Positions 3,743-18,130 of a stretch of 64,000 bases of DNA are shown piece by piece (position 1 is the first letter of the stretch; each line of letters begins with the position of its first letter). Source of the DNA: Candidatus Hodarchaeota archaeon (GTDB taxonomy: Archaea; Asgardarchaeota; Heimdallarchaeia; Hodarchaeales; Hodarchaeaceae). Both the position numbers and the translations under genes were made by a program. The stretch covers positions 6,835 through 70,834 of the forward strand of contig JAEOTQ010000168.1 of assembly GCA_016839785.1 (NCBI GenBank), written 5' to 3'. A model generated the notes under the pieces. It ran no database searches, had not been told where the DNA came from, and saw only the letters and a program-made list of their open reading frames with translations.

Positions 3743-5020
3743 TCAATGGGAAAATAGGTTATTCTCTTCAGCAAATTGAATTCTTCTTCGAAATAGCTCA
3801 GTGATGGCAAAGGATACTACAGTCAATGCTAGCATAAATAGTAATCCACCAACTGGCGATTGGAACGTATCTAAAAGTGCACCGAAGATCGTGGGGGAAA
3901 TAGAGCTAATAATAAGCCCTAGTGAAAAAACAAGTGAATAGAAAAAGGTTCTATCACCCGCGGGGACTAAATCAGCCTGTAATGCTTGTAATGTTCCTCC
4001 CGCTAGATAAAATCCAATAGCAAATAGAGAAAATCCGAGAATAATCACTAGAATTTCGGGAAAACCCAGAGTAATTACAATAAGCCCAGTAATTGCCAGA
4101 CTAGAAATGAGTGCCGAAATTAGTATTATTCTGATTCTCCCACGTGGACCCAAGCGATCAGAATTGATTGCTCCATAGATATCAGAAATAGATCCTAAAA
4201 GGAGAATAAAACTGGTTATAACTCCTGCATTGAAAGCTTCGACATGATAAAAATTCTTCAATAAAGTGGTCGTAAAATAGCTGATAGAGCGATAAACTCC
4301 ACCTCGTAATGCACTTATTAAAATAATTATAGCTAAACTCGTTATAATCCACTTTCGGTGGGGAGAGGAGCGAATGGAAGTACTGCTCTCCAACTCACTG
4401 ACAGTTTTTTCTTTTTCTCTTGATTTCAATAGGGATTCAAAGTTTCCAATCAAATTTTCAAGTAAAATCCAAGAAATGAGACTAAATACAAGAAGAATGC
4501 AAAACACACCAAGGAGGAAAAAGGTCGATCTCCAAGTGAAAAAAAAGATAGCTAAAGTTAAGGTGCTAATGGGACTAACAGCGGTTCCAATCACACCTGC
4601 TGCATGGTTGATAGCCATGGCTTTTCCCCGATTGCGATCTGAAAAAGAATTTGCGCAGACCCCTAATCCCACAGGATGATAAGTTGTACAGCCAAGACCA
4701 AGAATAATATTACCAAAAAACAATCCCAAGAAATCATTGGCCATCGAAATCCAAAAACTTGAGACAGCAAATAGAAAGATCCCCATAAGGACTATGAAAA
4801 ATCCTTTAGCAGCCTTTTTTCCTAAATATCCAATAAGTGGAGAGGTCAAAGCCATGATTAATGACGGAAGAGACCCTAATATTCCCATCTCAAGATAACT
4901 GAGAGGAATGTCCGTAATAATCAGAATGAGCAAAGCTGGAAAGGCATACAACAACACATGATGAATAAAGTGGGATATTGACATAAATCCGAGCAATTGG
5001 TGGCGAATATTCAATGACAA
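3743..5020 (-). CDS. MFS-type transporter
   Basis: 425 aa, strongly hydrophobic with about 12 predicted TM segments and a central hydrophilic loop. TGA stop. Confidence 0.7.
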   Translation of the reverse strand: MSLNIRHQLLGFMSISHFIHHVLLYAFPALLILIITDIPLSYLEMGILGSLPSLIMALTSPLIGYLGKKAAKGFFIVLMGIFLFAVSSFWISMANDFLGLFFGNIILGLGCTTYHPVGLGVCANSFSDRNRGKAMAINHAAGVIGTAVSPISTLTLAIFFFTWRSTFFLLGVFCILLVFSLISWILLENLIGNFESLLKSREKEKTVSELESSTSIRSSPHRKWIITSLAIIILISALRGGVYRSISYFTTTLLKNFYHVEAFNAGVITSFILLLGSISDIYGAINSDRLGPRGRIRIILISALISSLAITGLIVITLGFPEILVIILGFSLFAIGFYLAGGTLQALQADLVPAGDRTFFYSLVFSLGLIISSISPTIFGALLDTFQSPVGGLLFMLALTVVSFAITELFRRRIQFAEENNLFSH

Positions 5021-5191
5021 ATCAGGGACCTCTTGGATAAGAAGGAATAAAGGGATGTAGTGTAGGAGAAATTCAACCTCGTTTTCTGAATTTGACTAGT
5101 TTAATACCCATGCTCGGAAACGAAATTACGTCTCATAAGATGAGCGAATTTTTTAATTATTTGGGTATGTATCAGGAGAATTTCGGATGAA

Positions 5192-6511
5192 TTATCCTTC
5201 AGGAATAGGATTAATTGGCTTAAGAGGTTCATCCACAAAATAAAAAGCTAATCCTCCAAGTACTCGCAAAACCATCACTACTAAAACAAGAGAGTAGATA
5301 GTTGGCCACTTACCTAAAACTGGAATCAGTAGTTCTGTCACAACACCCATAGAAAAAGAACCCAGGAAAGTAACGATACCCATAATTAGCTGATAAGCTC
5401 CTACGTATCTGCCTTTAGATCCATCAGGAGCAGAATCAATGATATATGCTGTCGTGGTTACAAAATACAGTCCATACCCGATTCCACCAATAAAATTCCC
5501 AATAGCAAGTTCAACCCAATTTCTAGAAAAAAAGAGCACTAATGGTATCAGAAACATAATTCTACGGCCATTGAAACCAATCTTCTTACCGTATTTGTCA
5601 ATCAATTTGCCGCCAATTGATAGTGAAAAGATTTGACATGCCATATGGACAGCCCAGAGAAAACTATATTGACTGGGAGTAGTATAACGTTCACGAATAA
5701 ATCCGAAAATAGGCCATCCAGTTGACATGCTGAAGTCCATACAGGCACTAATTAGCACAAAACGAGTAAAAGTAGGATTCTCTCGAAAAGGAGCTAATAT
5801 GCTTCGAAAGGAAAATCTAGTATGCTTTTGTGTTGGCCTACCGTTAGATGGAGAGTGTGAATGTACCTCGAGATCAGAATTACCATTTGGATTGGTTTCT
5901 CGCAACCAGAACCAGGAAATAAAGCCGGCGAGAAGAAATCCTAAGGCACCAATACGATAAATCAGCATATACTGGGTCGTATAATCTGTGGAAAGGAATG
6001 GAATGATCCACCCCGAAATTAAAAAGACCACCATAGTGAAAATAACGGTTATAGTAGTAATACGACCAATGTAAGATCCTCTAGTACTTTCATGAGAAGT
6101 ATCACCTAAAAATGCTATCCAGGAAGGGGTAAAAATACTAAATGCTAAGGAATAAATGATCATGGCGACCAGTAAGATTAGAGGATCTGTGATCATAGGA
6201 AATAAAAAGCTCATAATGGCTGAAATAAAGAGCCCGATAACTAAAAATGGTTTTCTACCATATTTATCACTTAGTCGACCAAAGGGGAGTTGAACCGCTA
6301 ATTGAATAAGGTTTCTCATGCTAGTAATGATTGATAGAAGAATAGGAGAAGCACTAATAAATACGGCATAAATTTGGGAATAAGTGGCAACTATAAAATG
6401 ACCCGTGTCTTTTCCAATAGCTATCCCATATATGGTGCTTCCTTTGTTCTTAATACATGGTTCCTCCTGGGTTATAAGGTCTAAAGGAGGCTTAATGTCA
6501 GAATTAGTCAC
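5192..6511 (-). CDS. MFS-type transporter
   Basis: 439 aa. MFS motif-A-like FGRLSDKYGRKP and GGKLIDKYGKK in the two halves. Multi-TM profile. Confidence 0.75.
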   Translation of the reverse strand: MTNSDIKPPLDLITQEEPCIKNKGSTIYGIAIGKDTGHFIVATYSQIYAVFISASPILLSIITSMRNLIQLAVQLPFGRLSDKYGRKPFLVIGLFISAIMSFLFPMITDPLILLVAMIIYSLAFSIFTPSWIAFLGDTSHESTRGSYIGRITTITVIFTMVVFLISGWIIPFLSTDYTTQYMLIYRIGALGFLLAGFISWFWLRETNPNGNSDLEVHSHSPSNGRPTQKHTRFSFRSILAPFRENPTFTRFVLISACMDFSMSTGWPIFGFIRERYTTPSQYSFLWAVHMACQIFSLSIGGKLIDKYGKKIGFNGRRIMFLIPLVLFFSRNWVELAIGNFIGGIGYGLYFVTTTAYIIDSAPDGSKGRYVGAYQLIMGIVTFLGSFSMGVVTELLIPVLGKWPTIYSLVLVVMVLRVLGGLAFYFVDEPLKPINPIPEG

Positions 6512-6617
6512 GGTCTTCTCGAAGAAAGGGAAAAAGTGTGAAAGGAAATAGCTTCTTCCCTAAGGGTATTTTAAAAAAAAAGATGAGGGATGAAAAAATG
6601 ATTCATCCATAATTTTA

Positions 6618-8159
6618 CTAACTTTTCTTCTTTCGATGGAGTACCAGTAGTCCAAGGGTACATGAAATAATAAGAACCTGAAAACTTGGAGTAGAAGCTG
6701 TGGTAATGACAATATCAATTTCTCCAGAGAGTGGCCCTTCACCGATAGCGTTTTTTGCGCTAATAGCATAGAAAAATGAATTATCAGGAGTTGAAGGATC
6801 GGTATACTCTGAGACCACACCAAGAGTTGTGAGTAGACTCAAAGACCCTGATTCAGTCCCACGATAAATAAGATAATTAGTAATCGAAGAACCAGCATCA
6901 GTTGCAGGAGGAACCCACGTTAACTTGACTCCATTCGCCTCAAGGGAGATATTAATATTCAGTGGTGCACTTGGAGGATTTAGCTGGTAATGATAGGCCC
7001 AGGTCTCATTGAGATAGGTAGTAGGTGCACCCAGTATCCTTCCGCCGAAAAGAATCATTTTATCAGCAGAATAATCATACACCAGTGAGGAATGCGATGT
7101 GGCATGAGTTGGGGAATTCATATCGGTCCAGGTGAGAGTATTGTAATCAAAAGCCCAAGTATCAACATAGTCTGTTGGTTTTCCTCCAACAGCTTCTGTT
7201 CCACCAAATAAGATAATTCTATCAGATTCATTATCATAGTCCATTGCAGTCACCCAACGTGGGGTAGGTGCTTTAGTCGTAATGATTTGTGTCCAAGTAT
7301 CCGTATTGTAGTCATACGCCCATGTTTCATTCTTAAAGCGGTTAGCTAAAGGTTCAAAACCACCAGTCGAGCCACCAAAAAGAATTGATTTATCTGATTC
7401 AATATCATAACCAAATCCATTATCTGCCACCTTAGAAGGTTTAGTAACAGGATTCATTTGCTCCCAAGTATTTGTATTATAATCGTACGCCCATGTATCA
7501 TCAAAAAATGGTGCATTAGTAATGGAAAGATCCCGAGTATAACCTCCGTAAAGGATCACCCGATCAGATTCGGTATCATATACCATACTGCAAGCTAATC
7601 GAGGAGAAGGCGCAGTACTAGGTGACATATTTGTCCAGGTATTGGTATTCGTATCATATGCCCAGGTTTCAGGAGGGGCCTCTGTATATGTACCTCCACC
7701 GACTGCACTAACTGCTCCACCAAAGAGAATTATACGATCAGATTCAGCATCATATGCAAGACCAGGATTGGACCGACCTATAGGTGAAATGGCTGGAGTT
7801 ACATTTGTCCAGGATGCGGTCGTAAAATCAAAGGTCCAGGTATCAGTATAGTATACAAAATCTTCTCCAGAGATAATTTCTGGGAATCTTCCACTAAAAA
7901 GGATGGTTTTTGCAGACTCAATATCATAAGTCATCAGCTCATTACCTGTACGACTCCAAGGCGCACATGAAGGGTGTAATTGCACCCAATTCCCAATAGA
8001 TTCTTCAACCGTACTAGTTTCAAAAATAGTTTGGGTGATAACAACTTGTCCTTGAAAAGATGGAAAAAAAACAAGGAAAGAGATAACCAGTACACAAAAA
8101 ATATAATAGAATTGCAACTTCATTGGTTCTTTCGTATTAGAAAGAAAGGACATTAGCAT
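6618..8159 (-). CDS. Secreted Kelch-repeat protein with an FN3-like domain and a C-terminal TM anchor
   Basis: N-terminal signal/TM segment. About 6-7 repeats of the pattern ESDRIILFGG...TWAYDYNTNTW. An FN3-like segment (PSAPLNINISLEANGVKLTWVPP). C-terminal hydrophobic helix followed by HRKKKS. TAG stop. Confidence 0.75.
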   Translation of the reverse strand: MLMSFLSNTKEPMKLQFYYIFCVLVISFLVFFPSFQGQVVITQTIFETSTVEESIGNWVQLHPSCAPWSRTGNELMTYDIESAKTILFSGRFPEIISGEDFVYYTDTWTFDFTTASWTNVTPAISPIGRSNPGLAYDAESDRIILFGGAVSAVGGGTYTEAPPETWAYDTNTNTWTNMSPSTAPSPRLACSMVYDTESDRVILYGGYTRDLSITNAPFFDDTWAYDYNTNTWEQMNPVTKPSKVADNGFGYDIESDKSILFGGSTGGFEPLANRFKNETWAYDYNTDTWTQIITTKAPTPRWVTAMDYDNESDRIILFGGTEAVGGKPTDYVDTWAFDYNTLTWTDMNSPTHATSHSSLVYDYSADKMILFGGRILGAPTTYLNETWAYHYQLNPPSAPLNINISLEANGVKLTWVPPATDAGSSITNYLIYRGTESGSLSLLTTLGVVSEYTDPSTPDNSFFYAISAKNAIGEGPLSGEIDIVITTASTPSFQVLIISCTLGLLVLHRKKKS

Positions 8160-8390
8160 TCATCTCCCATACTCAAATTTCAAAATCTCGGAATTACATT
8201 CTAGTATGAAAAATAGGTATAAAAAGGATACTTTCTCTAGTAAAAAACGTAATAAATTACAAAAAGCACAAGAAAATACAGAGAAAAACAATTTCCTTAA
8301 TAAAGTCAAATGTAAAAGTACAAAAAAGGTGGGAAAGGGAAAATGGGGCACCCGGCGCAGCAGAAACAGTATATAAGTGTTGCGAAAAGG

Positions 8391-8398
8391 TTTATAAA
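8391..8398 (+). promoter_or_regulatory. TATA-like box (TTTATAAA) preceded by a purine-rich BRE-like CGAAAAGG
   Basis: Sequence GCGAAAAGGTTTATAAAGG lies about 220 nt upstream of the tfb ATG. It could drive a long leader or a separate small RNA. Confidence 0.3.
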
Positions 8399-8544
8399 GG
8401 AGGAAAAAGGCGTTGTAGTTAGTGGTGATTGAGGTCAGGCGCTCACCCTAGGTGGCAATTAATTTTCCCCGCGGTTTTAGCAAGAAAGAGAATTCTCTCG
8501 CAGTTAGTTCTCGCAGGAAAGTGAGAGAACAATATCGTAAAGAG

Positions 8545-8551
8545 TTTAAAA
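8545..8551 (+). promoter_or_regulatory. TATA-like box (TTTAAAA), candidate tfb promoter
   Basis: AAAGAGTTTAAAATCCC lies about 64 nt upstream of the tfb ATG. Confidence 0.35.
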
Positions 8552-8614
8552 TCCCAATACGGAAGGCTAACGCCCCGACCAGGCAATCACAAGTTTGAGA
8601 AGGAACGCTCAGGA

Positions 8615-9583
8615 ATGGCATCTATGAAAGAAGCAAAAGCAAAACCACAGAAAAAAGGCCAGGCAGAAGACGAGGAAGAAATCCTCGAATGTAAAAACTG
8701 TGGATCGACAGATATCGTAGCCGATGAAAATCGAGGCGAATTAATCTGTGAAAAATGTGGTTATGTGCTGGAAACACGACTGATAGACGAAGGCCCCGAA
8801 TGGCGAGCATTTAATAGTGAAGAACGCGATAAACGCAGTCGTGTCGGATCGCCAAGTACATTTTCAGTCCATGATAAGGGATTATCCACTATTATAGGAT
8901 ATGAAAACCGCGATACATTCGGTAATAAACTCACCGCCTCACGACGAGCACAAATCTACCGCTTACGGAAATGGCAGATACGAACCCGAGTGCATAGCTC
9001 GATGGATCGAAATCTAGCATTCGCCATGTCAGAAATGGATCGATTGGCCTCACAACTCGGAATACCACGAAATGTGAAAGAGACATCCGCAATTATATAT
9101 CGGAAAGCAATCGAAAAACGACTCGTTCGCGGACGCTCAATAGAAGCGATGGTCGCCGCAACAATCTACGCATCAGCACGCGTACGTCGAGTCCCACGAA
9201 CACTTGATGAAATCGCCAAAGAATCACGGATAACCAAAAAAGAACTTGGCCGGTGCTATCGACTCTTATTACGCGAACTATACCTAAATATCCCATTAGC
9301 GAGCCCAATCGATTATCTCGTCCGCTTTGGAACAGAACTAAGACTTTCTGGCGTATGTCAACGAAAAGCTGCCGAAATATTAAAACGCGCAAAAGCTGGC
9401 GGATTGACGGCAGGGAAAGACCCAACGGGCCTAGCGGCTGCAGCAATCTATATCAGCGGAATAATCAACGGGGAACGAAGGACACAACGGGAAATTTCAG
9501 AAGTGGCCCACGTTACCGAAGTTACTGTGCGAAATCGCTACAAAGAGCTTGTACGTAAGCTAAGTATCGAGATTACCGTTTAG
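8615..9583 (+). CDS. tfb: Transcription initiation factor TFB (TFIIB homolog)
   Basis: 322 aa. N-terminal zinc ribbon CKNCGS...CEKCG. B-reader/linker region and two cyclin-fold repeats (e.g. RGRSIEAMVAATIYASAR, GKDPTGLAAAAIYISG). TAG stop. Confidence 0.95.
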   Translation: MASMKEAKAKPQKKGQAEDEEEILECKNCGSTDIVADENRGELICEKCGYVLETRLIDEGPEWRAFNSEERDKRSRVGSPSTFSVHDKGLSTIIGYENRDTFGNKLTASRRAQIYRLRKWQIRTRVHSSMDRNLAFAMSEMDRLASQLGIPRNVKETSAIIYRKAIEKRLVRGRSIEAMVAATIYASARVRRVPRTLDEIAKESRITKKELGRCYRLLLRELYLNIPLASPIDYLVRFGTELRLSGVCQRKAAEILKRAKAGGLTAGKDPTGLAAAAIYISGIINGERRTQREISEVAHVTEVTVRNRYKELVRKLSIEITV

Positions 9584-9595
9584 AAGGTATCTCCT
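9531..9595 (+). repeat. Direct repeat copy A (65 bp): the functional 3' end of tfb (last 17 codons, stop, and 12 nt)
   Basis: GAAATCGCTACAAAGAGCTTGTACGTAAGCTAAGTATCGAGATTACCGTTTAGAAGGTATCTCCT recurs at 15511 and 16556 in the same orientation. Confidence 0.95.
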
Positions 9596-9599
9596 CCCC

Positions 9600-9634
9600 T
9601 TTTTCCTCCTTTCCTTTTTTTAACCCCTTTTTTT
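9600..9634 (+). terminator. T-tract terminator region downstream of tfb
   Basis: Three oligo-T runs (TTTTT, TTTTTTT, TTTTTTT) lie within 35 nt after the tfb stop. This is the archaeal intrinsic termination signal type. Confidence 0.4.
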
Positions 9635-9755
9635 GCATGAAGACGTTATTTCTGATTTGAAAACAGACTCTTTCTTCTAAATTGTTACTTTTGTCTGAAA
9701 TCTGGGTGTTTATAACTGCAATCTGTGTAAACTAGAAAATTGGGAAGTAAATGTA

Positions 9756-10286
9756 ATGCCAGATAATGGAATGCCCTCTAAAATTACTGAAAGTAGAGTA
9801 TCAGTAGATTTTGACGAGTTTACAGCTGAGGATCTGATATTTGATCCCCACCCCTCAATAGATGACCGATCCTTTGTTCAAGAGGTGATTGTTCAACATC
9901 AACAAAATGATGATGGAACTTTCTCTTGGATAACCCCTCTTCCAATTAATGATTCTAGACAAGTTAAATTCTTTTTGGATAAAATTTTAAGTCAGAAATC
10001 ACATCCTCGTTTATTTAGAGGAACAGTTGAGTTTTATATATTCTTTAAGTACGCTATTGATATTGATAAATCATTGGATGAGATTATCCTCAAACTTGAA
10101 GAGCTTACCAACTTGGTTCAGACTTTACAGGAATGGATTAGAAGTAAACAAGCTCAGCTTCTTTGTGATGATCATGGTTCCGGAATATTAAGTTTTTTGG
10201 TGACCAACGAAGTTTTTTCAGAAGCTTGCACCAAATTTTCTTGGACAATAAACGAAAATGAGGTAGTAGTTCTAGCTCAGAAATAA
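9756..10286 (+). CDS. Hypothetical acidic protein (E1 cargo)
   Basis: 176-aa ORF with a TATA-like GTTTATAA about 45 nt upstream. I recognise no motif. Confidence 0.5.
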   Translation: MPDNGMPSKITESRVSVDFDEFTAEDLIFDPHPSIDDRSFVQEVIVQHQQNDDGTFSWITPLPINDSRQVKFFLDKILSQKSHPRLFRGTVEFYIFFKYAIDIDKSLDEIILKLEELTNLVQTLQEWIRSKQAQLLCDDHGSGILSFLVTNEVFSEACTKFSWTINENEVVVLAQK

Positions 10287-10353
10287 GATCTAAATAATGC
10301 CTTTGTATTTAGGTTTTTATAAATAAAAAAAAAAGAGGGGAATGGGAATGACC

Positions 10354-12567
10354 TCACTTACCAATGAAGTACCCACGCAAATCCTGTCGCTTATAGAGCT
10401 GCTTTTTAGAGCATCCTATAACTCGGGAGACATTCAATGCACTTGGTTTGATCCCTTGTGCGTTGAGTTCCTCAATGGCTTCTTCAACCATTGAAGTAGT
10501 GATATTCCTCCGTTTGTAGGAGTGTGCGTGAGAACGATCATTATACTTCTCATTGAACACTTGAATCAAGTGCTCAGAAGTTGTACAATGAGGGACATAC
10601 CAGCGTTTAGGCCGGTAAGAGGTTCCATCGTCCTTGAGTTCCTCATGAATGAGGTTCATGGTACGATGGAGAGTTCCCAACCGTCTATTTAGGATATATG
10701 GTTGGATCCCTTCAAGATATGGTCGAAGAGCGGGATGAACGCGCAGCTCATCCGTAGAGTAGATATTACCATCCTCCAAGATCTGAAGGATAGTGGTGCA
10801 TACATGAACCGATAACTGTTGGTCTAATTTCCTCTCTGCTGAGAAGGAATTAGCAACAGCTAAGAGTTTAGAATGCTTATGCCAGAGACCCAATAGTGGA
10901 TCACGGACATAAAGAGGTGCTACATCATAAAGGAAGGCTTGTATACCCTCTTGACGTAACTGAAAACTATGGACCCCATCACGTTTACTTCGATACCAAT
11001 CGGAATGATCATATCCCAACTGATCGCATAAACGCATAATGAGGTGAAGGATTCCCAATTCTTTCTGTGTAATAGATATATCCGCACCAATACATCCATC
11101 ATCTACAATGAAAGCGGCGAGGAATTGTACTTTCCAATCTCGATAACGAGCTGGTAAATTGAGTACAAAGTGAAGAAAGGAAGGGGTCCGAAGGTCACGA
11201 AATGTGATCCCTCGAATAGTTCCCAGCATAGCATAAACTAATGCTTTGGGATATATCATCCTGTCATAATCTATAGTAGGATCACGACTCAGATGAGAGA
11301 GAAGAGTTCGCATGGGACCCTGATTTTCGGGGAGTTGAATCCACCGTAGATCAGGATTTTTGCGAAAATGGACATTGCCGTCACCGGCAATGTGAGAGAG
11401 TATTCGCCAGGCATAGATATCCATGACGAATGGGAATGTGAGGTACTCCAGGTCACCTCGTTTTGAAAATCGAACCGCTCGCGCGTTTCGCTCAACCTGG
11501 TTAAGGTCCATCTCTGCATACAGGCAGAGACGTTCGAGATTCGGTACCACGATCGATTGATCTGGGGAATCCCGGATATTGGATAAGATTGTCCTACTTA
11601 TCCCAATCTCTCGACTCAATGTCGACAGATTGATTCCTTTCAACATGGTTGAAAGGGTAATCCAATCCTTTTTGCCCAACAGGACATAGAGATTGGTAAA
11701 CTCCCAAAGAGACACCTCCTGGAAGGTGTACTCTTCAGGGACGACCGGCCATGTGGCCTCTGGGAGGCCTGTTATGACACGGTCAGGAAGTGGGGTCTTT
11801 GCCCCAGCTTTCCTAGAGGGAGGGGTGTGTTGTGACATCGTCATTTCACCACGTGTAGAGTGTCTACCTGCCTCTTCCATGTCACCATGGACGAGGACCA
11901 TGCCCGAGGGCTTCTCAGAAAAGACATGTCTTGCGACACCTCTTCTCTGAGGAGATACGACCTTGAAGGGGTCGTGTCCCTGTGGTAGTTGGGTATGGCT
12001 TTGAGTTAACACTCTTCTGGTGACTGACACACTCTCTCTGGCTAGTTCCTGACCATGTGTGTAAGTCGGATTTCTCTCTTTGTGATGTATACGCTGTTGT
12101 TGTGGATGTTGTTCTTCTTCCGTATTCCCTTCATTGGATGTTTTTGTTTCCCTACAAAAGAATTGCCTGTCTTGTGACCCGATCCAACTTGGAGAGTCGA
12201 CGAGGCCAGCATTTTGTTGATGGATAAGTTGTGCTGGTTGGTGTTGGACGTGATTTAGTGATTGCCTCTGCGATGTTCGCGGGCTTAGAGCACTAGGGTC
12301 CGTACCGTGAATCAGGGTTTTTTGACTTCGTCCTTGGGCTTTGTCCTCCTGATTCTGTTCGGGATACAGGGCTAGTTTCGTCACGGGCTGAGGTAGATGG
12401 GTGTCTCCAAGTATCGATGACCAAGAACCATTCCTCTTTTCGCCTCGTGTGTTTTTAGCCAACATCGGTTGTTCACCGTGTTTTTTTTTCCACATGCCTT
12501 TTTTGTGCAAGTGGTAGGCAAGTACTGGCTTCCAGCACTTTCTACATATGGTTGTGAATTTTAACAT
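10354..12567 (-). CDS. Large element protein: Cys/His-rich N-terminus, ~280-aa low-complexity region, HTH, double LAGLIDADG-like core, C-terminal HTH
   Basis: 737 aa. Q/H/S/T/R/P-rich segment at roughly residues 30-300. HTH-like LSTLSREIGISRTILSNIRD. LAGLIDADG-like motifs ILSHIAGDGNV and FLAAFIVDDGCIG about 95 aa apart. C-terminal HTH-like LNVSRVIGCSKKQLYKRQ. Confidence 0.6.
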   Translation of the reverse strand: MLKFTTICRKCWKPVLAYHLHKKGMWKKKHGEQPMLAKNTRGEKRNGSWSSILGDTHLPQPVTKLALYPEQNQEDKAQGRSQKTLIHGTDPSALSPRTSQRQSLNHVQHQPAQLIHQQNAGLVDSPSWIGSQDRQFFCRETKTSNEGNTEEEQHPQQQRIHHKERNPTYTHGQELARESVSVTRRVLTQSHTQLPQGHDPFKVVSPQRRGVARHVFSEKPSGMVLVHGDMEEAGRHSTRGEMTMSQHTPPSRKAGAKTPLPDRVITGLPEATWPVVPEEYTFQEVSLWEFTNLYVLLGKKDWITLSTMLKGINLSTLSREIGISRTILSNIRDSPDQSIVVPNLERLCLYAEMDLNQVERNARAVRFSKRGDLEYLTFPFVMDIYAWRILSHIAGDGNVHFRKNPDLRWIQLPENQGPMRTLLSHLSRDPTIDYDRMIYPKALVYAMLGTIRGITFRDLRTPSFLHFVLNLPARYRDWKVQFLAAFIVDDGCIGADISITQKELGILHLIMRLCDQLGYDHSDWYRSKRDGVHSFQLRQEGIQAFLYDVAPLYVRDPLLGLWHKHSKLLAVANSFSAERKLDQQLSVHVCTTILQILEDGNIYSTDELRVHPALRPYLEGIQPYILNRRLGTLHRTMNLIHEELKDDGTSYRPKRWYVPHCTTSEHLIQVFNEKYNDRSHAHSYKRRNITTSMVEEAIEELNAQGIKPSALNVSRVIGCSKKQLYKRQDLRGYFIGK

Positions 12568-12768
12568 GAATGGTCGTTCACAATTCCACTTTCCATATTG
12601 CCTGTTGGTACTAAATTAAGAACCATCTAGGATTGTTCCCACCCCTTTTATACTTGTAAAAATTGGTTGATATTCCATTTTGCTCCTCGAAATTTTATGG
12701 ACTCACGTACTTGGATTTTCGAATATAAATATCATCTACCCTTATACATTATTGATGAGTGAAAAGCA

Positions 12769-13581
12769 ATGAGTGTACACACCTCTTCGGTTTCTTCGAA
12801 TAAATCTCAATTCCCTTTGGATGACGCTTTTTCAGAATGTGCCAAGATTTCCATCCCCGGGGATTCCTCTTTTCCCGAACGTCGTCCAATTCCTACTTAT
12901 TTAAAGAGTTTAGATTATAAATGGAGAGGAGGATGGTTTTGGCAATGGCCAGTATTAATTGCTGGTCCAAAAGGGGCAGGAAAAAGCCTTTTTCTTGCAC
13001 AATTGATTGCCTCTACTCTCTTAAGCTGTCGAAAGCCTTGGCAGGTTCTCTATTACGACTTTAATCTAGATTATCAAGCCCAACGCATTCTACGAGTGTT
13101 AAAAATGCGCTCTCAAACCGCTACTCCTGCCTCGTATCTTAGTCGAATTGACAAACTCACACTCCCCTCTAAGATTTGGAATGATTATTTCTTTTATCCT
13201 ATAGTGAAGCATTCTATGCTTGCTACCTTAGTTCTTGATGGCTGGAATACTTTTTTCCCTTCTGTCGATGGATTGAGAGGTTTTGCAGAGATTGCTAGAA
13301 AAAAACAAATGGGCTTACTGGTGACTATGCGTGGTGATCTTGATGAGCTGCTTAAATCTACCCCCTGGACCTCCATTCCCTACTTCATGTATATCACCAA
13401 ACAGAAACATAAACAGCACAGGATTCGTCTGTGGCAAAATTCCCCTACTAGTCAGATCTATGATCGTGTAGTGGAATTTAAAGGGTATTTTATAGAATTT
13501 CGATCAAAAAAGAAAGAAAAACAAGCTTCGAAGCCCCGCTTACTTACAGTTTATGGTGCTTCCCCTTCCACGAGGGATTAA
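12769..13581 (+). CDS. RecA-superfamily (KaiC/RepA/DnaB-C-like) P-loop ATPase
   Basis: 270 aa. Walker A VLIAGPKGAGKSLF and Walker B-like ATLVLDGW. TATA-like ATATAAATA lies ~40 nt upstream. The 3' end contains an A_AAA_AAG heptamer. Confidence 0.65.
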   Translation: MSVHTSSVSSNKSQFPLDDAFSECAKISIPGDSSFPERRPIPTYLKSLDYKWRGGWFWQWPVLIAGPKGAGKSLFLAQLIASTLLSCRKPWQVLYYDFNLDYQAQRILRVLKMRSQTATPASYLSRIDKLTLPSKIWNDYFFYPIVKHSMLATLVLDGWNTFFPSVDGLRGFAEIARKKQMGLLVTMRGDLDELLKSTPWTSIPYFMYITKQKHKQHRIRLWQNSPTSQIYDRVVEFKGYFIEFRSKKKEKQASKPRLLTVYGASPSTRD

Positions 13582-13766
13582 CAATATATTCAGAAGCTTT
13601 TCGTCTTTCTGCAGCGAGTTCGTCATTTTCTGACCACGATTTACCCTCTGAAATTCGTGCTCACTTTCCGTTTCCCTCTTTTCGTCCTGGTCAGGCACAG
13701 GTCTTAGCTTTAATCGCTGCTAATCCACGGATAGCTATCAATGCGTATACAGGTTTTGGCAAATCG

Positions 13767-15416
13767 GTGATTGCTTTTGCTGCGCTTTGGGAGCAAATGA
13801 AAAGCGGTGATTATCAGTTATGGTGTTTTTCCAAGACCAAAGCACAGCTTCGTTCGGTTTTTCTCAAGACCCTGAAACAATTCTATAGTCATCCTCCCGC
13901 TGATCAACTTACTCTTCTTCCTCTGATCGCCAGTAAAGATCTTTGCCCTTTATCTCACGAGGCGGAATGTTTTCATTGTTCCCAGAAAAAACGAACTCGT
14001 TTTTCATCACTTAAGACTTTAAAGGAGGTTCTTCCCCATCTTACTCTTGCTCAATGCCCGAATACTTTTGATGGTTTTCGACAGCTTTTATCTCCTTATG
14101 GTTGTCCCGCCCAGGTTATTAGACGGTTGCTCCCCCAAATAAACATCATTTTATTACCTCAGGGATATCTCGAATCTCAGCAGTTACGCTTTTCATTAAC
14201 TAAGTTCTTTTGGAATGCTTATTATTTTGGGTTTCGTTGGAGTCACCGTTTCGCCATTATCGATGAAACACATAATTTCGGACCCACAATTGAAGCAGAG
14301 GTTAATAGGGATCATCTCGATCGTGTTCAATCCATAGGAGCCTTTCCCGTTGTGGAAACTCTGCAGAACTTGTGTCAAAAACGTTTAGGTAGAGTCACTC
14401 GGCCTCTTACCACGGATCGTACCCAGGCAGTCAAAATCGACTCTTTTCTTCAGCAAAAAGGTATTCGTCATTCTCTTTCACCTGAGGATCTTGCTGCTTT
14501 CCATGCCGTCCGAACCTTCCTTCTTCGTAAAGGTCAATATTGGGTTCATACTAAGGAGGGATTAGTCCAGTTCGATCCTTTTCCAAAGCAAATCTTTGAG
14601 TATGTCAATCGACACTTTTCCCGAACGATTCTATTTTCTGCTACTTTTCAGTATCTCAAATACTATTCCCATTATTATGGTCTGAAACAACCTTGGAATG
14701 TGTATCATTTACATAATGTAAAAACCCCTAAAGCTCGAATCCGTCAGTTGTTGATAACGGCTCTAATAAGTCCCCAGATTAGTAGTTCTCAGCGCAATCG
14801 GACATCAACTTTGCTTAAATGGTGCGCTCAAACCATTAAAGATATTGCTTTAGAAATTCCAGACCATACTTGGGTTTTTGTCCCCTCGTATGAATTCTTG
14901 GAGGAACTTTATCCGCTTGTTCAAGACCAATTGTCTGAGACCATGTCTCTTTTCCATGAACCCAGAAAAGGGCAGATTCCCTTCCTCTCTGAGTTAATCT
15001 CTGGTCCTCCGAGTGTGGTTATAGCGGTTTATGGGGGAAAATTCAGTGAGGGTGTGGAGGTTCGTCATCCCAAAACAGGTCGAAGTCGGGTACGGATGGT
15101 TATCTTAGTTGGATTACCCTTTCCAGCCCCAACACCTGAATATAGATTGCTATTTAATCTCTATCTTCGTTGCTATCGACATCTTCACTTTGTTAAGTGG
15201 ACGTTAATTGAACGTCATCTCTATACACAGGTTCGACAATGTCTTGGACGGGCCATTCGCTCTGAAGCTGATCAAGCCACAGGTCTGATTCTTGACTATC
15301 GAGCGTTTTATAATCGTCATCATCTCCCCAACTTGCGTATGTTTCGGTATTTTGATGATTTAAAATCATTTCTTCATCGTCGTTTTCGCCAATTGAAAGA
15401 ATATGACAATTTTTGA
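13767..15416 (+). CDS. XPD/Rad3/DinG-family Fe-S helicase. ORF-track start shown; homology continues upstream to at least ~13650.
   Basis: Cys cluster CPLSHEAECFHC...CPNTF...GCPAQ. DExH-like IIDETHNF. Motif VI QCLGRAIRSEADQATGLILD. The motif Q/I region FPFPSFRPGQ...AYTGFGKS lies in the same frame upstream of the GTG at 13767, with no ATG/GTG/TTG before it. Confidence 0.75.
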   Translation: MIAFAALWEQMKSGDYQLWCFSKTKAQLRSVFLKTLKQFYSHPPADQLTLLPLIASKDLCPLSHEAECFHCSQKKRTRFSSLKTLKEVLPHLTLAQCPNTFDGFRQLLSPYGCPAQVIRRLLPQINIILLPQGYLESQQLRFSLTKFFWNAYYFGFRWSHRFAIIDETHNFGPTIEAEVNRDHLDRVQSIGAFPVVETLQNLCQKRLGRVTRPLTTDRTQAVKIDSFLQQKGIRHSLSPEDLAAFHAVRTFLLRKGQYWVHTKEGLVQFDPFPKQIFEYVNRHFSRTILFSATFQYLKYYSHYYGLKQPWNVYHLHNVKTPKARIRQLLITALISPQISSSQRNRTSTLLKWCAQTIKDIALEIPDHTWVFVPSYEFLEELYPLVQDQLSETMSLFHEPRKGQIPFLSELISGPPSVVIAVYGGKFSEGVEVRHPKTGRSRVRMVILVGLPFPAPTPEYRLLFNLYLRCYRHLHFVKWTLIERHLYTQVRQCLGRAIRSEADQATGLILDYRAFYNRHHLPNLRMFRYFDDLKSFLHRRFRQLKEYDNF

Positions 15417-15510
15417 GATACTTTGGGGAGGGAGCTGTCAAAAATCTACTCGTCTATTGAAGTACAAAGTTTCAACTTTTAATTTCTTGGATTGTTTCGC
15501 AAAAATTTAC

Positions 15511-15575
15511 GAAATCGCTACAAAGAGCTTGTGCGCAAGCTGAGTATCGAGATTACCGTGTAGACGGTATCTCCT
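15511..15575 (+). repeat. Direct repeat copy B (65 bp, displaced tfb 3' end)
   Basis: 5 mismatches to copy A. The 4 inside the coding part are all third-position synonymous, so it still spells RNRYKELVRKLSIEITV*. Confidence 0.95.
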
Positions 15576-16461
15576 TTATTTTTTTCTTTTTTCGGCGAGT
15601 GGAGAGACTGTGTGTACAAATAATTAGTGCTATTGTGATTAATAAGTGATCTATAGAAGTAGTAAGATTTATTGAGGGAGTTTCTGTTGGTTTTTCTATT
15701 TTGATGTCCCAATGATAAATCATTCCATTCCCATTTAAGTCCAGAAAATGAGTAAATAGAGTATAACTACCATTAGGGTAATTTTGACTAGCTATGTGAA
15801 TTTCAAAAGTGTACGCAACTGTCTTAGGGCCTGTGTACTCTAAATTTGTTTTTAATTCTATATCAGATTCAAAAAAAGTTTCTGTAGATTGTTTTAAAGT
15901 CACGGAGGCTTCTTTAATGTCATTATTTGTCTCAACAGATCCATTAATTGTAATATTTCCCATCCAGATTTGATTATCTTTGATTCCACTAAATGTTGCT
16001 TCTGGATATTCTTCTAATGAGGCATCATAGACAATAGTTCTTAATTTTACATTACAATAGAGATCTCCGTCTCCATACGCATCTTCTGAAGCTATTGTGA
16101 AATCTTTTTCTTCTTCCACACTCATGCCCACAATTGCTTCTTTGAACTTGAGGAGATAACTTGCACTTGCATCTGGATACAATACGAGGATATTTCCAGG
16201 CACTATATCATTAGTAGCAAGGTATACATTGTTCAAAGAGTTAATGGTGTCTGAATGTACGGAATTTTCTTCTCTCGTAAAAGAAAAGTCTACATTCACT
16301 ATATCTCCCCAGTTTGCAGTTACTTCCATACCCCTAGCAGTATATCCAATCACCCAAATATTAAATAGAACGATAACAACTAAGATTATCTTCCTTGACT
16401 TCAAGTTGTTTCCCACCTTCATCACTATCTTATTTTTGTTAAACTGTTCTAATAAAACCAT
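15553..16461 (-). CDS. Membrane-anchored extracellular protein (E2 cargo)
   Basis: 302 aa with an N-terminal TM/signal segment (IILVVIVLFNIWVIGYTARG) and a C-terminal TM followed by RRKKKK. Its last codons and stop lie inside repeat copy B, on the opposite strand. Confidence 0.55.
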   Translation of the reverse strand: MVLLEQFNKNKIVMKVGNNLKSRKIILVVIVLFNIWVIGYTARGMEVTANWGDIVNVDFSFTREENSVHSDTINSLNNVYLATNDIVPGNILVLYPDASASYLLKFKEAIVGMSVEEEKDFTIASEDAYGDGDLYCNVKLRTIVYDASLEEYPEATFSGIKDNQIWMGNITINGSVETNNDIKEASVTLKQSTETFFESDIELKTNLEYTGPKTVAYTFEIHIASQNYPNGSYTLFTHFLDLNGNGMIYHWDIKIEKPTETPSINLTTSIDHLLITIALIICTHSLSTRRKKKKIKEIPSTR

Positions 16462-16555
16462 TCATCAATCATTCTACCTAGATTCAAATGCTATTTTCTG
16501 AATATTAGATATAAAGTGAAATATTAGATTATCAACATTACTAAGATAACCATGT

Positions 16556-16620
16556 GAAATCGCTACAAAGAGCTTGTACGCAAGCTTAGTACCGAGATCA
16601 CCGTATAGACGGGATCTCCT
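16556..16620 (+). repeat. Direct repeat copy C (65 bp, displaced tfb 3' end)
   Basis: 7 mismatches to copy A. In the coding part, 4 are synonymous and 1 is non-synonymous (Ile to Thr). It is preceded by TGA instead of CGA. Confidence 0.9.
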
Positions 16621-16917
16621 ATCTTTTTTCTTTTAATGTTTCACGAATTCGGGTACCAATAAATCTAATTTCATATTATTACATAGAGCGTTATCTGCTA
16701 TTTTTTTTGCGTATCCATGGAAATTAATGAGATTTATTTTAATCTTTATGGAGCTAGAATAAATTCTGAGGTTTTTAATCCCTCTAACTGTTCTAAAGGG
16801 AATGATCCCCTCCCCTTGCGTGATATCTGGTGCAGGTATCCTCTCTCTTATTAACTAATTAATTAGTATTTTTCCTATCTTTATGACTAAGCGAATATAA
16901 ACAAAATGTGATTTTAT

Positions 16918-17538
16918 ATGTTCATTTCAGAAATTTTTTCAAACCGAATTGGAAATCGGGAAGCCCTTGGATTTTTTCTTTTTATTGGGCCTCTCCAATT
17001 TATTCTAAGTGTGTTGATTGCCGAAGGAATGGCTGAATCGTATGATTCAGGTCTTCATTATGTCAGTTCCTTGGGCGTGGGAGCAACGGCCAATCTTTTC
17101 AACACTTCAGTCCTTATCCTCGGAATTTGTATTTTATTAGGAACATACTTTTTTCATCTAGAATATCCAGAACGAATACCTACAGTGTTTTTACTACTCA
17201 CTGCCCTTTCTGCCGTTGGTGTGGGGGTATTTCCTGAGGATGCTCCTCCCTTTCATGGCATTTTTACAGGATTTGTATTTTTGTTTGCAGCGATCTTTTT
17301 AATTTCAATTATCAAGGTAAACCGATCTTTACCTCTTATTTCTCTCTCTATATTGGGAGGTGTGATTCTAATTGCAAGTCTTCTCTTCCTTCCCTATCTC
17401 GGTTTGGATGTTGAAGATCCCACAAAATTCCTAGGTTTTATGAAAGGTACATTAGAACGATTCATTATATATCCCACCCTATCAGGATTTCTTATTCTCA
17501 GTGGCTATCTCAGTAGAAGCACAGACACGAAAGTTTAG
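16918..17538 (+). CDS. DUF998-like integral membrane protein
   Basis: 206 aa with about 6 TM segments. The N-terminal pattern GFFLFIGPLQFILSVLIAEG resembles DUF998. TAG stop. Confidence 0.5.
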   Translation: MFISEIFSNRIGNREALGFFLFIGPLQFILSVLIAEGMAESYDSGLHYVSSLGVGATANLFNTSVLILGICILLGTYFFHLEYPERIPTVFLLLTALSAVGVGVFPEDAPPFHGIFTGFVFLFAAIFLISIIKVNRSLPLISLSILGGVILIASLLFLPYLGLDVEDPTKFLGFMKGTLERFIIYPTLSGFLILSGYLSRSTDTKV

Positions 17539-17659
17539 ACGTCTGGTGGCTATTTTTCTTTTTTTTGTTACATCTCGTTCTGAGATTTTATTATAAATCT
17601 CAAGATCGAAAGGAATTTTGCGAATTTCTGACTAACTTAGCAAACGAGATGAATTTATC

Positions 17660-18130
17660 TTGGATATCCTCATACGAGAATTAACAAAAGAAGATTTTGA
17701 TGGGATAAAAAGAATTTTTGCTGAATCGTTTAAGTATCATGAACAAATTGATTCAATATTTGCCTCTAGTGAAGGTGCGGATCAAATCTGGATAGATTAT
17801 ATTGACACGATTTACCAACAAGATGACATCCAAGTTTATATTGCGATATTAGATGACGATATTGTTGGTTACTGCGTTGGTCAAATTCTTGATAAACCAC
17901 CAGTATTTAAAATGAGGAGAATTGGACAAATCAATAATATTGCAGTCAAAGAGGGCCATAAACAACATGGGGTTGGACAATTATTATTTGAGAAAATAAA
18001 AGGATGGTTTGACACCCAAAATGTATGTCATATTGAACTGTCGGCTGCAACAAATAATCCTCAATCTTTAGCGTTTTGGAGCAAAATGGGGGGGAGAGAA
18101 TTCATGAAAACGATGATTATTACGATTTGA
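17660..18130 (+). CDS. GNAT-family N-acetyltransferase
   Basis: 156 aa with a TTG start. Acetyl-CoA-binding motif A: INNIAVKEGHKQHGVGQLLFEKIKGW. Confidence 0.8.
   Translation: MDILIRELTKEDFDGIKRIFAESFKYHEQIDSIFASSEGADQIWIDYIDTIYQQDDIQVYIAILDDDIVGYCVGQILDKPPVFKMRRIGQINNIAVKEGHKQHGVGQLLFEKIKGWFDTQNVCHIELSAATNNPQSLAFWSKMGGREFMKTMIITI

Follow-up and report, generated by a model that had tools for sequence, protein, structure and literature searches.

The window analysed is a stretch of 64,000 nucleotides from a Hodarchaeales (Asgard) genome. The target gene, tfb, encodes transcription initiation factor B (TFB; 322 aa) and lies at 8615-9583 on the forward strand (Pfam TFIIB, 4.1e-43; Zn_Ribbon_TF, 7e-20). 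Its 3' tail occurs in three same-strand copies beginning at 9531, 15511 and 16556, with spacings of 5,980 and 1,045 bp, as a first-pass annotation of this DNA had reported. A degenerate 64-mer of the tail gave exactly three matches in the 64-kb window and none in 100 shuffles. The repeat had been described as 65 bp; the repeat itself was recovered, but its length was revised to ~75-85 bp, since the unit also takes in a short hairpin (ACCGTnTAGACGGT) and the T-run after it. Copy 1 (9531-9605, forward strand) is the functional in-gene copy and consists of 17 codons, the stop codon, a hairpin-like stretch and a T-rich run. Copy 2 (15511-15585, forward strand) is non-genic, forms the distal end of the segment termed E1 (~9606-15510) and is followed by a G-rich box. 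Copy 3 (16556-16630, forward strand) is the most distal and closes a second segment, E2 (15586-16555).

Pairwise identity between the tail copies was 89-92%, with 5-7 differing positions per copy. Nearly all differences fell at synonymous third-codon positions, the exception being one Ile-to-Thr change in copy 3. Copies 1 and 2 were 92% identical; their first 23 nt were the same, and all differences within the former reading frame were synonymous. Copy 1 had one mismatch in 83 nt to the in-gene tail of strain L001, copy 3 was closest to the in-gene tail of strain L002 (94.9% identity over 78 nt) and copy 2 was similar to the in-gene tail beside a related element in L003. By marker pattern the copies are mosaics, as judged from few informative sites. 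The distal copies begin fairly sharply at GAAATCGCTA, which is the best-conserved block, and a degenerate trace of ~12 nt is also present upstream of them. The last 24 amino acids of TFB were identical in all 12 loci compared, although the nucleotides had diverged by ~20%. Very conserved coding sequence in an essential gene is a typical homing endonuclease target, and the tfb tail fits this description. A structured-RNA or tRNA target was rejected: Rfam gave no match in 8000-18000 (E<=1), and the window holds no tRNA gene.

The hallmark gene of E1 lies at 10354-12567 on the reverse strand and encodes a predicted free-standing double-LAGLIDADG endonuclease of 737 aa with N- and C-terminal helix-turn-helix (HTH) domains. 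Positions 10354-11844 encode the conserved core and 11845-12567 a GC-rich, poorly conserved N-terminal extension. The protein has a Cro/C1-like HTH at the N-terminus and winged-helix and HTH modules at the C-terminus; a 200-aa low-complexity extension is often present in the family. Both motifs, HIAGDGNV and FLAAFIVDDG, were found, and their aspartates (G-D-G and D-D-G) were invariant across 19 homologues, 7 of which were matched by Pfam LAGLIDADG_3. Searches with the 737-aa protein or its family profile gave no sequence match in the PDB, and matches came from the fold search alone. The AlphaFold (AF2) model (pLDDT 80.9) gave PI-PkoII (2cw7, E 1e-6) and I-DmoI as top Foldseek matches with a probability of 1.00, the latter at a target-normalised TM of ~0.6; WhiA was a weak structural match. 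Model and fold matches predict an alpha-beta-beta-alpha-beta-beta-alpha double domain. The first-pass annotation had overlooked the double LAGLIDADG motif in this open reading frame and had suggested integration machinery of an undescribed type for E1. The invariant aspartates and the PI-PkoII/I-DmoI fold make that suggestion less likely; the machinery is probably a known enzyme class, a homing endonuclease, in an unusual setting. The locally elevated GC content noted earlier was seen again (0.44-0.49 over ~10.5-12.5 kb, against ~0.36-0.39 around it) and coincides with the N-terminal half of the 737-aa frame.

All source-named members among the 19 homologues, and the genome records fetched for them, were labelled Hodarchaeales/Hodarchaeota or Heimdallarchaeota, and the close family was seen only in Hodarchaeales-type contigs. 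The endonuclease gene adjoins the tfb 3' end in convergent orientation in 12 of 13 loci with readable flanks, where its end lies 170-1,550 bp from the tfb stop codon. A full-length member in L004 does not have tfb as its neighbour. Truncated or fragmentary members (P0018, P0019 and L006) fit the expected cycle of endonuclease gain and decay. Distant relatives on two other archaeal contigs lie upstream of an aminoacyl-tRNA synthetase gene in apparently conserved synteny and keep the acidic motifs as GDG and DEG, so that the motif by itself is no proof of mobility.

Three further genes were assigned to E1, all on the forward strand. The first, orf176 (9756-10286), is an accessory gene that often accompanies the endonuclease gene; jackhmmer placed its homologues in eight element loci, where they lie just upstream of the LAGLIDADG gene or in the interval that separates this gene from tfb. 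It had no family match in Pfam, PHROGs, NCBIfam or PADLOC, and the eight aligned sequences shared six invariant residues, all hydrophobic (V, F, L). A hidden recombinase was rejected for orf176: besides the missing family match, a large protein search returned only a self-match, and no invariant residue is of catalytic type. The second gene (12769-13581) encodes a P-loop ATPase of the KaiC/RecA superfamily (270 aa; Pfam KaiC-type ATPase, 6.8e-6, below the curated cut-off) with weak KaiC matches in the PDB. The third (13767-15416) encodes an XPD/Rad3/DinG-family helicase of 549 aa (Pfam Helicase_C_2, 1e-23; PADLOC type IV DinG, 1.9e-33), whose best PDB matches were archaeal XPD proteins (1e-15). 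Homologues of the helicase were found in the L003, L007 and L009 elements, adjoined by homologues of the ATPase in L003 and L009; L019 has a 256-aa open reading frame and a 566-aa Helicase_C_2 protein at the respective positions. The ATPase may be either cargo or a recombination helper, and the same choice applies to the helicase, which as cargo would possibly serve defence. E1 had been credited with replication and recombination-type proteins; the proteins so described are the ATPase and the helicase, which are missing from several family members and may be cargo. Cargo elsewhere includes pAgo in L007, an ABC transporter in L017 and RmuC and RNase III genes in L003. The shortest arrangement was seen in L016, where a tail copy lies ~950 bp past the start of the endonuclease gene with only an orf176 homologue between, which suggests that endonuclease plus orf176 is the minimal unit.

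E2 is a single-gene cassette without a mobility gene. Its gene (15553-16461, reverse strand) reaches into tail copy 2, which holds the stop codon and the codons for a Lys-rich C-terminus; the product is a predicted membrane-anchored protein of 302 aa with only a weak FKBP_C match in Pfam. It is unrelated to the single genes of the equivalent cassettes in L001 (218 aa) and L003 (354 aa), and a conserved host gene was rejected as the content of such cassettes, the three examples being unrelated proteins. The first gene to the right of the array shared with strain L001 encodes a DUF998 protein (16918-17538, forward strand; Pfam DUF998, 5e-16) with 85% identity to its L001 counterpart. DNA to the right of the array, including the DUF998 gene and a GNAT gene, was 12-24% divergent from L001, against ~2% upstream of tfb.

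The open reading frames of E1 and E2 were searched with Pfam, PHROGs, NCBIfam and PADLOC, and no tyrosine or serine recombinase, Cas1 or DDE transposase was detected, which bears out the earlier statement for E1 in four libraries. Precomputed Pfam annotation of eight related element loci likewise contained no recombinase, transposase or Cas1. The attL/attR architecture proposed earlier was thus retained in part: direct target repeats flank the inserts and the gene end is restored, but an integrase-family gene was found neither in E1 and E2 nor in the related loci. A transposon was rejected, as terminal inverted repeats are absent at the insert ends. E1 had no Cas1 or PolB match, and with no terminal inverted repeats it differs from a casposon; there is no IntI-type recombinase, and the repeat is a coding tail and not attC, so it differs from an integron as well. 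No relatives of the element were found in phage records, plasmid records or IMG/VR, nor was the tail pattern found in IMG/VR, and these collections gave no support to a virus or plasmid origin.

Comparison with related loci indicated that the segments between tail copies are insertions and not conserved synteny, as the first-pass annotation had held. The near-identical strain L001 lacks the 5.98-kb E1, with upstream DNA 98% identical; its TFB protein, like that of L002, is 100% identical. The endonuclease gene is variably present. One more distant Hodarchaeales tfb gene has a single tail copy and no repeats, and cargo differs between genomes. Arrays of 2-4 tail copies were present behind tfb in four other independent assemblies from different samples (L001, L003, L017 and L019). 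In L017 and L019 the in-gene tail is altered at many synonymous sites and followed by new sequence, the foreign variants starting just to the right of the GAAATCGCTA block; the distal copies share a common tail-plus-downstream sequence, which we take to be ancestral. When three near-identical strains are compared, the synonymous mismatches of tfb become more frequent toward the 3' end; between L001 and L002 the counts per 120 nt along the gene were 0, 0, 0, 1, 1, 0, 0, 0, 2, 3, 1, 3, 8, 10 and 12. In these three strains, the gradient is the pattern expected of conversion tracts starting at the tail.

The reading that we prefer, with moderate confidence, is that E1 is a free-standing homing endonuclease cassette whose enzyme cleaves unoccupied tfb tails and which is copied into them as the break is repaired; we infer cleavage, target site and mobility alike. 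E1 would belong to a family of integrase-less mobile cassettes at the chromosomal tfb 3' end, seen here only in Hodarchaeales-type genomes, with the tfb-proximal and convergent gene for a monomeric double-LAGLIDADG protein with extra HTH domains as its hallmark and probable mobility gene. On a chromosome copy without the element, the endonuclease would introduce a double-strand break within the tfb tail or close beside it, and homologous recombination would repair the break with the occupied chromosome as template. The left broken end would pair within the tfb body and tail copy 1, synthesis would proceed across the cassette, and the right end would pair with the tail copy beyond it. The duplicated tail may thus do two jobs. 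As a portable right-hand homology arm it would work whatever sequence follows downstream, and it would let the essential TFB keep its final 17 codons. Occupied alleles may be poor substrates through the synonymous changes and altered flanks of their tail copies; such immunity cannot reside in the left part of the tail, where the first 23 nt do not differ between copies 1 and 2. Every new invasion would shift older tails and cassettes downstream and so build an array. E2, lacking an endonuclease, may be what remains of an older element or may have come along as a passenger when a break was repaired from an inner tail copy, and the ATPase and XPD/DinG pair would be cargo or accessory, not core. 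Several points tell against this reading: a LAGLIDADG scaffold can bind DNA without being catalytic, WhiA being an example; the L004 member lies away from tfb; distant relatives sit in apparent synteny; and divergence from L001 is far greater on the right flank of the array than on the left, so that plain homologous replacement of a variable region could partly explain the pattern with no nuclease.

Classical site-specific integration, in which E1 is or was a circle whose attP mimics the tfb tail, was judged unlikely. The recombinase would be encoded elsewhere, be too divergent to recognise (orf176, for example) or have been lost, and the LAGLIDADG protein would be only a DNA-binding or targeting factor or a regulator. 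Direct repeats that bracket the inserts and re-supply the gene end are the standard attL/attR picture, and the distal copies start quite sharply at the GAAATCGCTA block, which lies just left of the foreign variants in L017 and L019 and could be a crossover core. This explanation is opposed by the library searches of E1 and the Pfam annotation of the eight related loci, by the wholly hydrophobic set of invariant orf176 residues and by the lack of a free, viral or plasmid form in the IMG/VR, phage and plasmid collections. The conserved acidic residues argue for a catalytic LAGLIDADG domain, and polymorphism is not confined to the repeat but continues upstream within tfb, an effect that a conservative recombinase would not have. 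A circular episome with one tail might instead have entered by nuclease-stimulated, Campbell-type integration, the chromosomal tail being cut and crossover repair inserting the circle between two tails. The end product would be the same, with direct repeats and variably partitioned markers; the resemblance of copy 2 to the in-gene tail beside the L003 element agrees with it, and an episomal phase could make use of the ATPase and helicase. We regard this route as improbable: genes for a replication initiator, a primase or a polymerase were not detected, the short L016 contig shows no candidate replication gene in its apparent minimal element (endonuclease and orf176) and no circular or free contigs were found in the same three collections.

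It is also conceivable, though quite improbable, that a variable island behind tfb is reshuffled by ordinary homologous recombination, with the tails as relics of old duplications and the LAGLIDADG-HTH protein as a domesticated WhiA-like regulator. The 12-24% divergence to the right of the tail (DUF998, GNAT) between strains 98% identical on the left agrees with a hotspot of this kind, as do the WhiA-type structures among the fold matches and the distant relatives in apparent synteny beside an aminoacyl-tRNA synthetase gene. Against this, the position and orientation of the endonuclease gene beside the tail are fixed in 12 of 13 loci while all else varies, the catalytic-type acidic residues are invariant, and the tail has been re-supplied repeatedly and independently, with different sets of synonymous variants, which speaks for directed insertion at a single site. 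It is very unlikely that the repeats stem from a contig that was collapsed or chimeric: the sequence is from a metagenome-assembled genome and related contigs (L009, L012 and L020) break near tfb, but each copy has 5-7 differing positions, a similar layout recurs in four other independent assemblies from different samples, and reading frames are intact across the junctions.

Genomic islands are usually explained by integrases or transposases. The homing reading suggests an endonuclease in place of an integrase, with cut-and-copy spread of a kind for which we found no described precedent among archaeal genomic islands. Neither tfb-targeting elements nor this LAGLIDADG family were described in the literature searched, the coverage of which was incomplete, and an earlier description is possible. 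We tentatively propose that Hodarchaeales carry a previously undescribed, integrase-free class of island, in which a LAGLIDADG enzyme would cut the 3' end of the TFIIB homologue and host recombination would copy in the endonuclease with its cargo (pAgo, DinG/XPD-type helicase modules, transporters). Duplicated tails would serve as portable arms, and an integron-like array would arise by gene conversion and not by site-specific recombination; the wider family beside aminoacyl-tRNA synthetase genes of other archaea may mark additional sites of homing within conserved informational genes. Should the nuclease be what drives insertion, homing would be able to carry kilobases of cargo, defence genes included, into the chromosome of a cellular organism at an essential gene, an integron-like cassette array would be explained without a recombinase, and a new, very specific LAGLIDADG enzyme/target pair would become available for study. 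The tfb-tail repeats would be a concrete marker of variable regions and gene flow in Asgard genomes.

Among known systems, integrase-mediated islands and proviruses occupy the 3' ends of tRNA or protein genes, and archaeal casposons the 3' end of aEF-2 or tRNA genes. The tfb elements share with these the insertion at a conserved gene 3' end, the re-supplied gene end, direct repeats and tandem arrays from repeated hits, but have no tyrosine or serine integrase or Cas1 in the elements examined and no terminal inverted repeats. As in integron arrays, some units are single-gene, each is bounded by the same short repeat and all are stacked at one fixed site, with the newest unit probably closest to it; in contrast to integrons, an IntI recombinase and attC-like folded sites are absent, the repeat derives from host coding sequence and joining is likely by homologous recombination. 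Free-standing homing endonuclease genes that spread by 'intronless homing' are known from phage T4 (the seg and mob genes; cf. PMC2790892, PMC10055350). The likeness lies in an endonuclease gene outside any intron or intein, beside its presumed target in a conserved essential gene. Such a gene would spread through repair of the break, flanking DNA and passenger genes being co-converted with it, and sequence differences would protect occupied alleles. The tfb system differs from T4 in its LAGLIDADG type with added HTH domains, its archaeal chromosome, its 3-11 kb of cargo, its duplicate of the target gene 3' end and the array of tail-delimited cassettes left by successive events; the papers found report none of these features for the phage cases. 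With I-DmoI (from an rRNA intron) and PI-PkoII (an intein) the protein shares a predicted double-motif monomer fold and an acidic residue ending each motif, but its gene stands outside any intron or intein, it has extra HTH and winged-helix modules and there is no detectable sequence similarity to PDB chains. The bacterial transcription factor WhiA also fuses a LAGLIDADG scaffold to HTH DNA-binding domains. WhiA has lost the catalytic acidic residues and is a conserved housekeeping gene, whereas the tfb-linked family keeps these residues invariant and the E1 endonuclease gene is present or absent between close strains.

A repeat search of the window returned a single repeat family with three in-register copies, starting at 9510, 15490 and 16535 (spacings of 5,980 and 1,045 bp). 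A degenerate 64-mer spanning the three same-strand tfb tails reported by the first-pass annotation (9531, 15511 and 16556; tail copies 1, 2 and 3) had precisely three matches in the window, against none in 100 shuffles, and the three direct copies and both spacings were thereby confirmed. Pairwise identity among the copies is 89–92%. Read in the tfb frame, the differences are nearly all synonymous third-position changes; a single Ile-to-Thr change is present, in copy 3. The 65-bp length originally given did not hold, since the true unit is longer (about 75–85 bp in total) and extends via a small hairpin, ACCGTnTAGACGGT, which includes the stop codon, into a T-run. Several distal copies, those lying farther from the gene, in the window and in other genomes show traces, degenerate in sequence, of the 12 nt (GAAGTTACTGTG) that precede the unit. 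Most of the tails inspected, whether in-gene or distal, have a G-rich box of consensus GGGGnnGGAG beside T-runs, 25–60 nt past the stop codon. It lies at 15586–15600 in the window and downstream of tails in L001, L002, L003, L005, L010, L012 and L015–L019 (L numbers denote loci from other assemblies), and is absent after window copies 1 and 3. The box might act as a terminator or belong to a recognition site.

The tfb gene (8615–9583) was assigned from Pfam TFIIB and TFIIB zinc ribbon matches, and its protein is 100% identical on two other contigs. Comparison of tfb loci, which had been proposed as a way to find sites without the insert, yielded such sites. L001 (GCA_054389205.1) is 98% identical to the window over 4.2 kb upstream and encodes the same TFB protein. 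E1, the insert between copies 1 and 2 (about 9606–15510), is missing from it altogether; behind tfb there is a single insert of approximately 830 bp, which holds an unrelated gene for a 218-aa protein, and next come a second tail copy, which is decaying, and DUF998. A more distant Hodarchaeales tfb (L021 and L022; protein 79% identical) has just one tail copy, and repeats are absent within 10 kb. The tail array is therefore not conserved synteny. Further arrays behind tfb were located in other assemblies with an nhmmer profile of the tail: four copies in L003 (one degenerate), three in L017, three in L019 (one degenerate) and two in L001. Independent assemblies show comparable architecture and the tail copies differ from one another, which makes an assembly artefact highly improbable as the source of the repeats.

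The L020 locus, on a 102-kb contig, has a tfb with a 28-nt internal tandem duplication (10640–10730; CTGAATATCCCCCTCGCATCACCCATAG) and a called protein shortened to 233 aa, and the contig stops about 85 nt past the tail; a fault of assembly at a variable locus is the probable cause. Upstream of tfb, 4178–8036 of the window (about 3.9 kb, within 3743–8159) is missing from L001. The missing stretch spans three minus-strand genes in tandem, for proteins of 425, 439 and 513 aa, the last of them a Kelch-repeat protein. A 136-aa ORF occupies the point in L001 (8952–9496) where the two homology blocks meet, so that L001 probably carries a deletion between tandem genes.

E1 contains four ORFs: orf176 (9756–10286, plus strand), which has no family match; a 737-aa ORF with a double-LAGLIDADG core (10354–12567, minus strand); a 270-aa P-loop ATPase, weakly KaiC-like (12769–13581, plus strand); and a 549-aa XPD/Rad3/DinG-family helicase (13767–15416, plus strand; Helicase_C_2, 1e-23; PADLOC type IV DinG, 2e-33), for which the best PDB sequences are archaeal XPD. 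No tyrosine or serine recombinase, Cas1 or DDE transposase was found in E1 using Pfam, PHROGs, NCBIfam and PADLOC, in agreement with the first-pass annotation, and a repeat search of E1 found no terminal inverted repeats. The raised GC content noted for this larger insert is real, but confined to about 10.5–12.5 kb (0.44–0.49 versus about 0.37). The minus-strand genes of the small cassettes (302 aa in the window; 218 aa in L001) stop inside the preceding tail unit, the complement of the tail T-run being translated as a Lys-rich C-terminus. Cassette gene and tail unit thus physically overlap (window 15553–15600; L001 10982–11004).

HIAGDGNV and FLAAFIVDDG both lie in the conserved core of the 737-aa ORF (about 496 aa; 10354–11844, minus strand). 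When 19 homologues, 7 of them matched by Pfam LAGLIDADG_3, were aligned, the G-D-G and D-D residues proved invariant; the invariant motif aspartates are core residues D155 and D249. An AlphaFold model generated from this alignment (mean pLDDT 80.9) gave its best PDB matches to the archaeal intein endonuclease PI-PkoII (2cw7, E 1e-6) and to many I-DmoI entries (probability 1.00, target-normalised TM about 0.6), WhiA being matched more weakly. Sequence searches of the PDB with the 737-aa protein and its family profile found no match, and the protein is therefore placed in a divergent branch of the LAGLIDADG fold. On the testable features, the protein classes as a LAGLIDADG endonuclease. It also carries a Cro/C1-like HTH at its N terminus and helical, DNA-binding-like modules at its C terminus. 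Many members, that of the window included, carry a low-complexity, poorly conserved N-terminal extension of about 240 aa, which is missing from several homologues and in which close relatives keep the frame open. The window's extension (11845–12567, minus strand) is the GC-rich stretch noted above (about 48% GC in the extension) and is rich in Q, H, R, P, S and T. It may be a disordered stretch or a mis-called start.

All source-named homologues and genome records fetched with the 737-aa protein were from Hodarchaeales, Hodarchaeota or Heimdallarchaeota MAGs (Asgard). A HMMER scan of 1.8 billion representative proteins produced 26 matches below 1e-30, all of the endonuclease family, and about 60 more distant proteins of roughly 370–490 aa with the same HTH-plus-LAGLIDADG layout. 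At thirteen distinct loci the DNA past the endonuclease gene's 3' end was available, and in 12 of these tfb is the next conserved gene, in convergent orientation. The gap between the two genes is about 175–185 bp with nothing between in L007, L010, L012 and L018; 650–1,020 bp, holding an orf176 homologue, in the window, L003, L005, L014, L017 and L019; and 1.07–1.55 kb in L013 and L015. L004 departs from this pattern: tfb is absent there, and the endonuclease gene abuts methionine-synthase-like and SAM-synthetase genes; the G-rich box (about 1940–1975, minus strand, beside the endonuclease gene) and T-run that end other elements are retained. Eight loci have orf176 homologues, to one side or the other of the endonuclease gene, and the family alignment has no invariant polar residue. 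In L016 no more than about 950 bp separates the endonuclease gene start from a distal tail copy beyond it, and an orf176 homologue is all that lies between, so that the minimal unit appears to be endonuclease plus orf176. Cargo otherwise comprises ATPase and XPD (window, L003, L009, L019), RmuC, an RNase III-like protein and a rhomboid (L003), an ABC transporter (L017), or pAgo with neighbours (L007; PADLOC pAgo, 5e-67). At L007 1082–7151, the 478-aa pAgo (Piwi) is flanked by unknown proteins of 244 and 429 aa and a 455-aa XPD-like helicase, and this cassette may carry an Argonaute defence module.

The last 24 TFB residues are identical in 12 of 12 loci, though the gene DNA differs by up to about 20%. 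Three near-identical strains agree fully over the 5' 180 nt of tfb, and their synonymous mismatches become more frequent toward the 3' end; between L001 and L002 the counts per 120 nt are 0, 0, 0, 1, 1, 0, 0, 0, 2, 3, 1, 3, 8, 10 and 12. Across tfb, each 100 nt of the window has 0–4 mismatches to L001, apart from 9300–9400, where there are 10; the two cannot be aligned past about 9600. To the right of the array, the DUF998 and GNAT genes common to both are 12–24% divergent, compared with about 2% left of tfb. The variable region therefore reaches right beyond the last recognisable tail copy, and the tail is taken to mark an edge of genetic exchange, conversion having extended back into tfb. 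Over window 16700–17730 and L001 12216–13231, DUF998 and the start of GNAT have only 76–88% DNA identity, as against 98% upstream of tfb.

Against the L001 in-gene tail, copy 1 has 1 mismatch in 83; copy 2 is similar to the in-gene tail adjoining the related element in L003, and copy 3 to that of strain L002. The tail copies of the window lineage are mosaics, and this variable partitioning of markers is more in keeping with homologous exchange than with a fixed crossover point, though informative sites are few. In L017 and L019, numerous synonymous differences separate the in-gene copy beside the element from the distal copies, and the sequence directly after the stop codon is different as well. 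The distal copies have in common the tail and about 50 nt downstream (T-run, G-rich box, second T-run), which we read as the ancestral form. Such a pattern would be expected if a gene end arrived with the incoming DNA and took the place of the resident version.

DNA has thus been inserted behind tfb with repeated tails, a conserved double-LAGLIDADG protein next to tfb and variable cargo, and arrays occur in several genomes. As to its origin, we lean toward a homing-endonuclease cassette. The 737-aa protein, predicted to be active, would cut naive tfb tails (those without an element), and break repair with the occupied chromosome as template would copy the cassette in. Tail copies on both sides would supply homology, the in-gene copy would keep TFB intact, and successive events would stack cassettes; those without an endonuclease, among them E2 (15586–16555, between copies 2 and 3), would be relics or passengers. 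The exchange boundary at the tail supports a recombination-based process, and it also means that part of the pattern comes from ordinary homologous replacement. Weighing against homing, copies 1 and 2 have their first 23 nt in common, so that no target site can be named, and distant relatives with the GDG and DEG motifs (L023 8001–9215, 404 aa; L024 8001–9476, 491 aa), are found on two different, unrelated archaeal contigs, in each case directly upstream of a class I aminoacyl-tRNA synthetase gene that has the same orientation, with eRF1 next. They may point to a further homing site in a conserved gene, or to a housekeeping function.

An integrase of the classical kind, either unrecognised or working in trans, is an unlikely source of the array. 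Campbell integration of an episome, stimulated by the nuclease, is more doubtful; relatives of the element were absent from phage, plasmid and IMG/VR collections. We give slightly less credence still to a passive recombination hotspot beside a domesticated LAGLIDADG-HTH regulator.

No description of tfb-targeting elements or of this endonuclease family in Asgard archaea was found in the literature searched. By their defining features, the window element does not class as an integrase element, casposon, integron or WhiA. What it produces resembles an integrase-type island at a gene 3' end, or an integron array. It would work most like the free-standing homing endonuclease genes of phage T4 (seg/mob), by intronless homing that carries neighbours, and what we rate as new here is the proposed use of such mobility in building a chromosomal cassette array at an essential gene.
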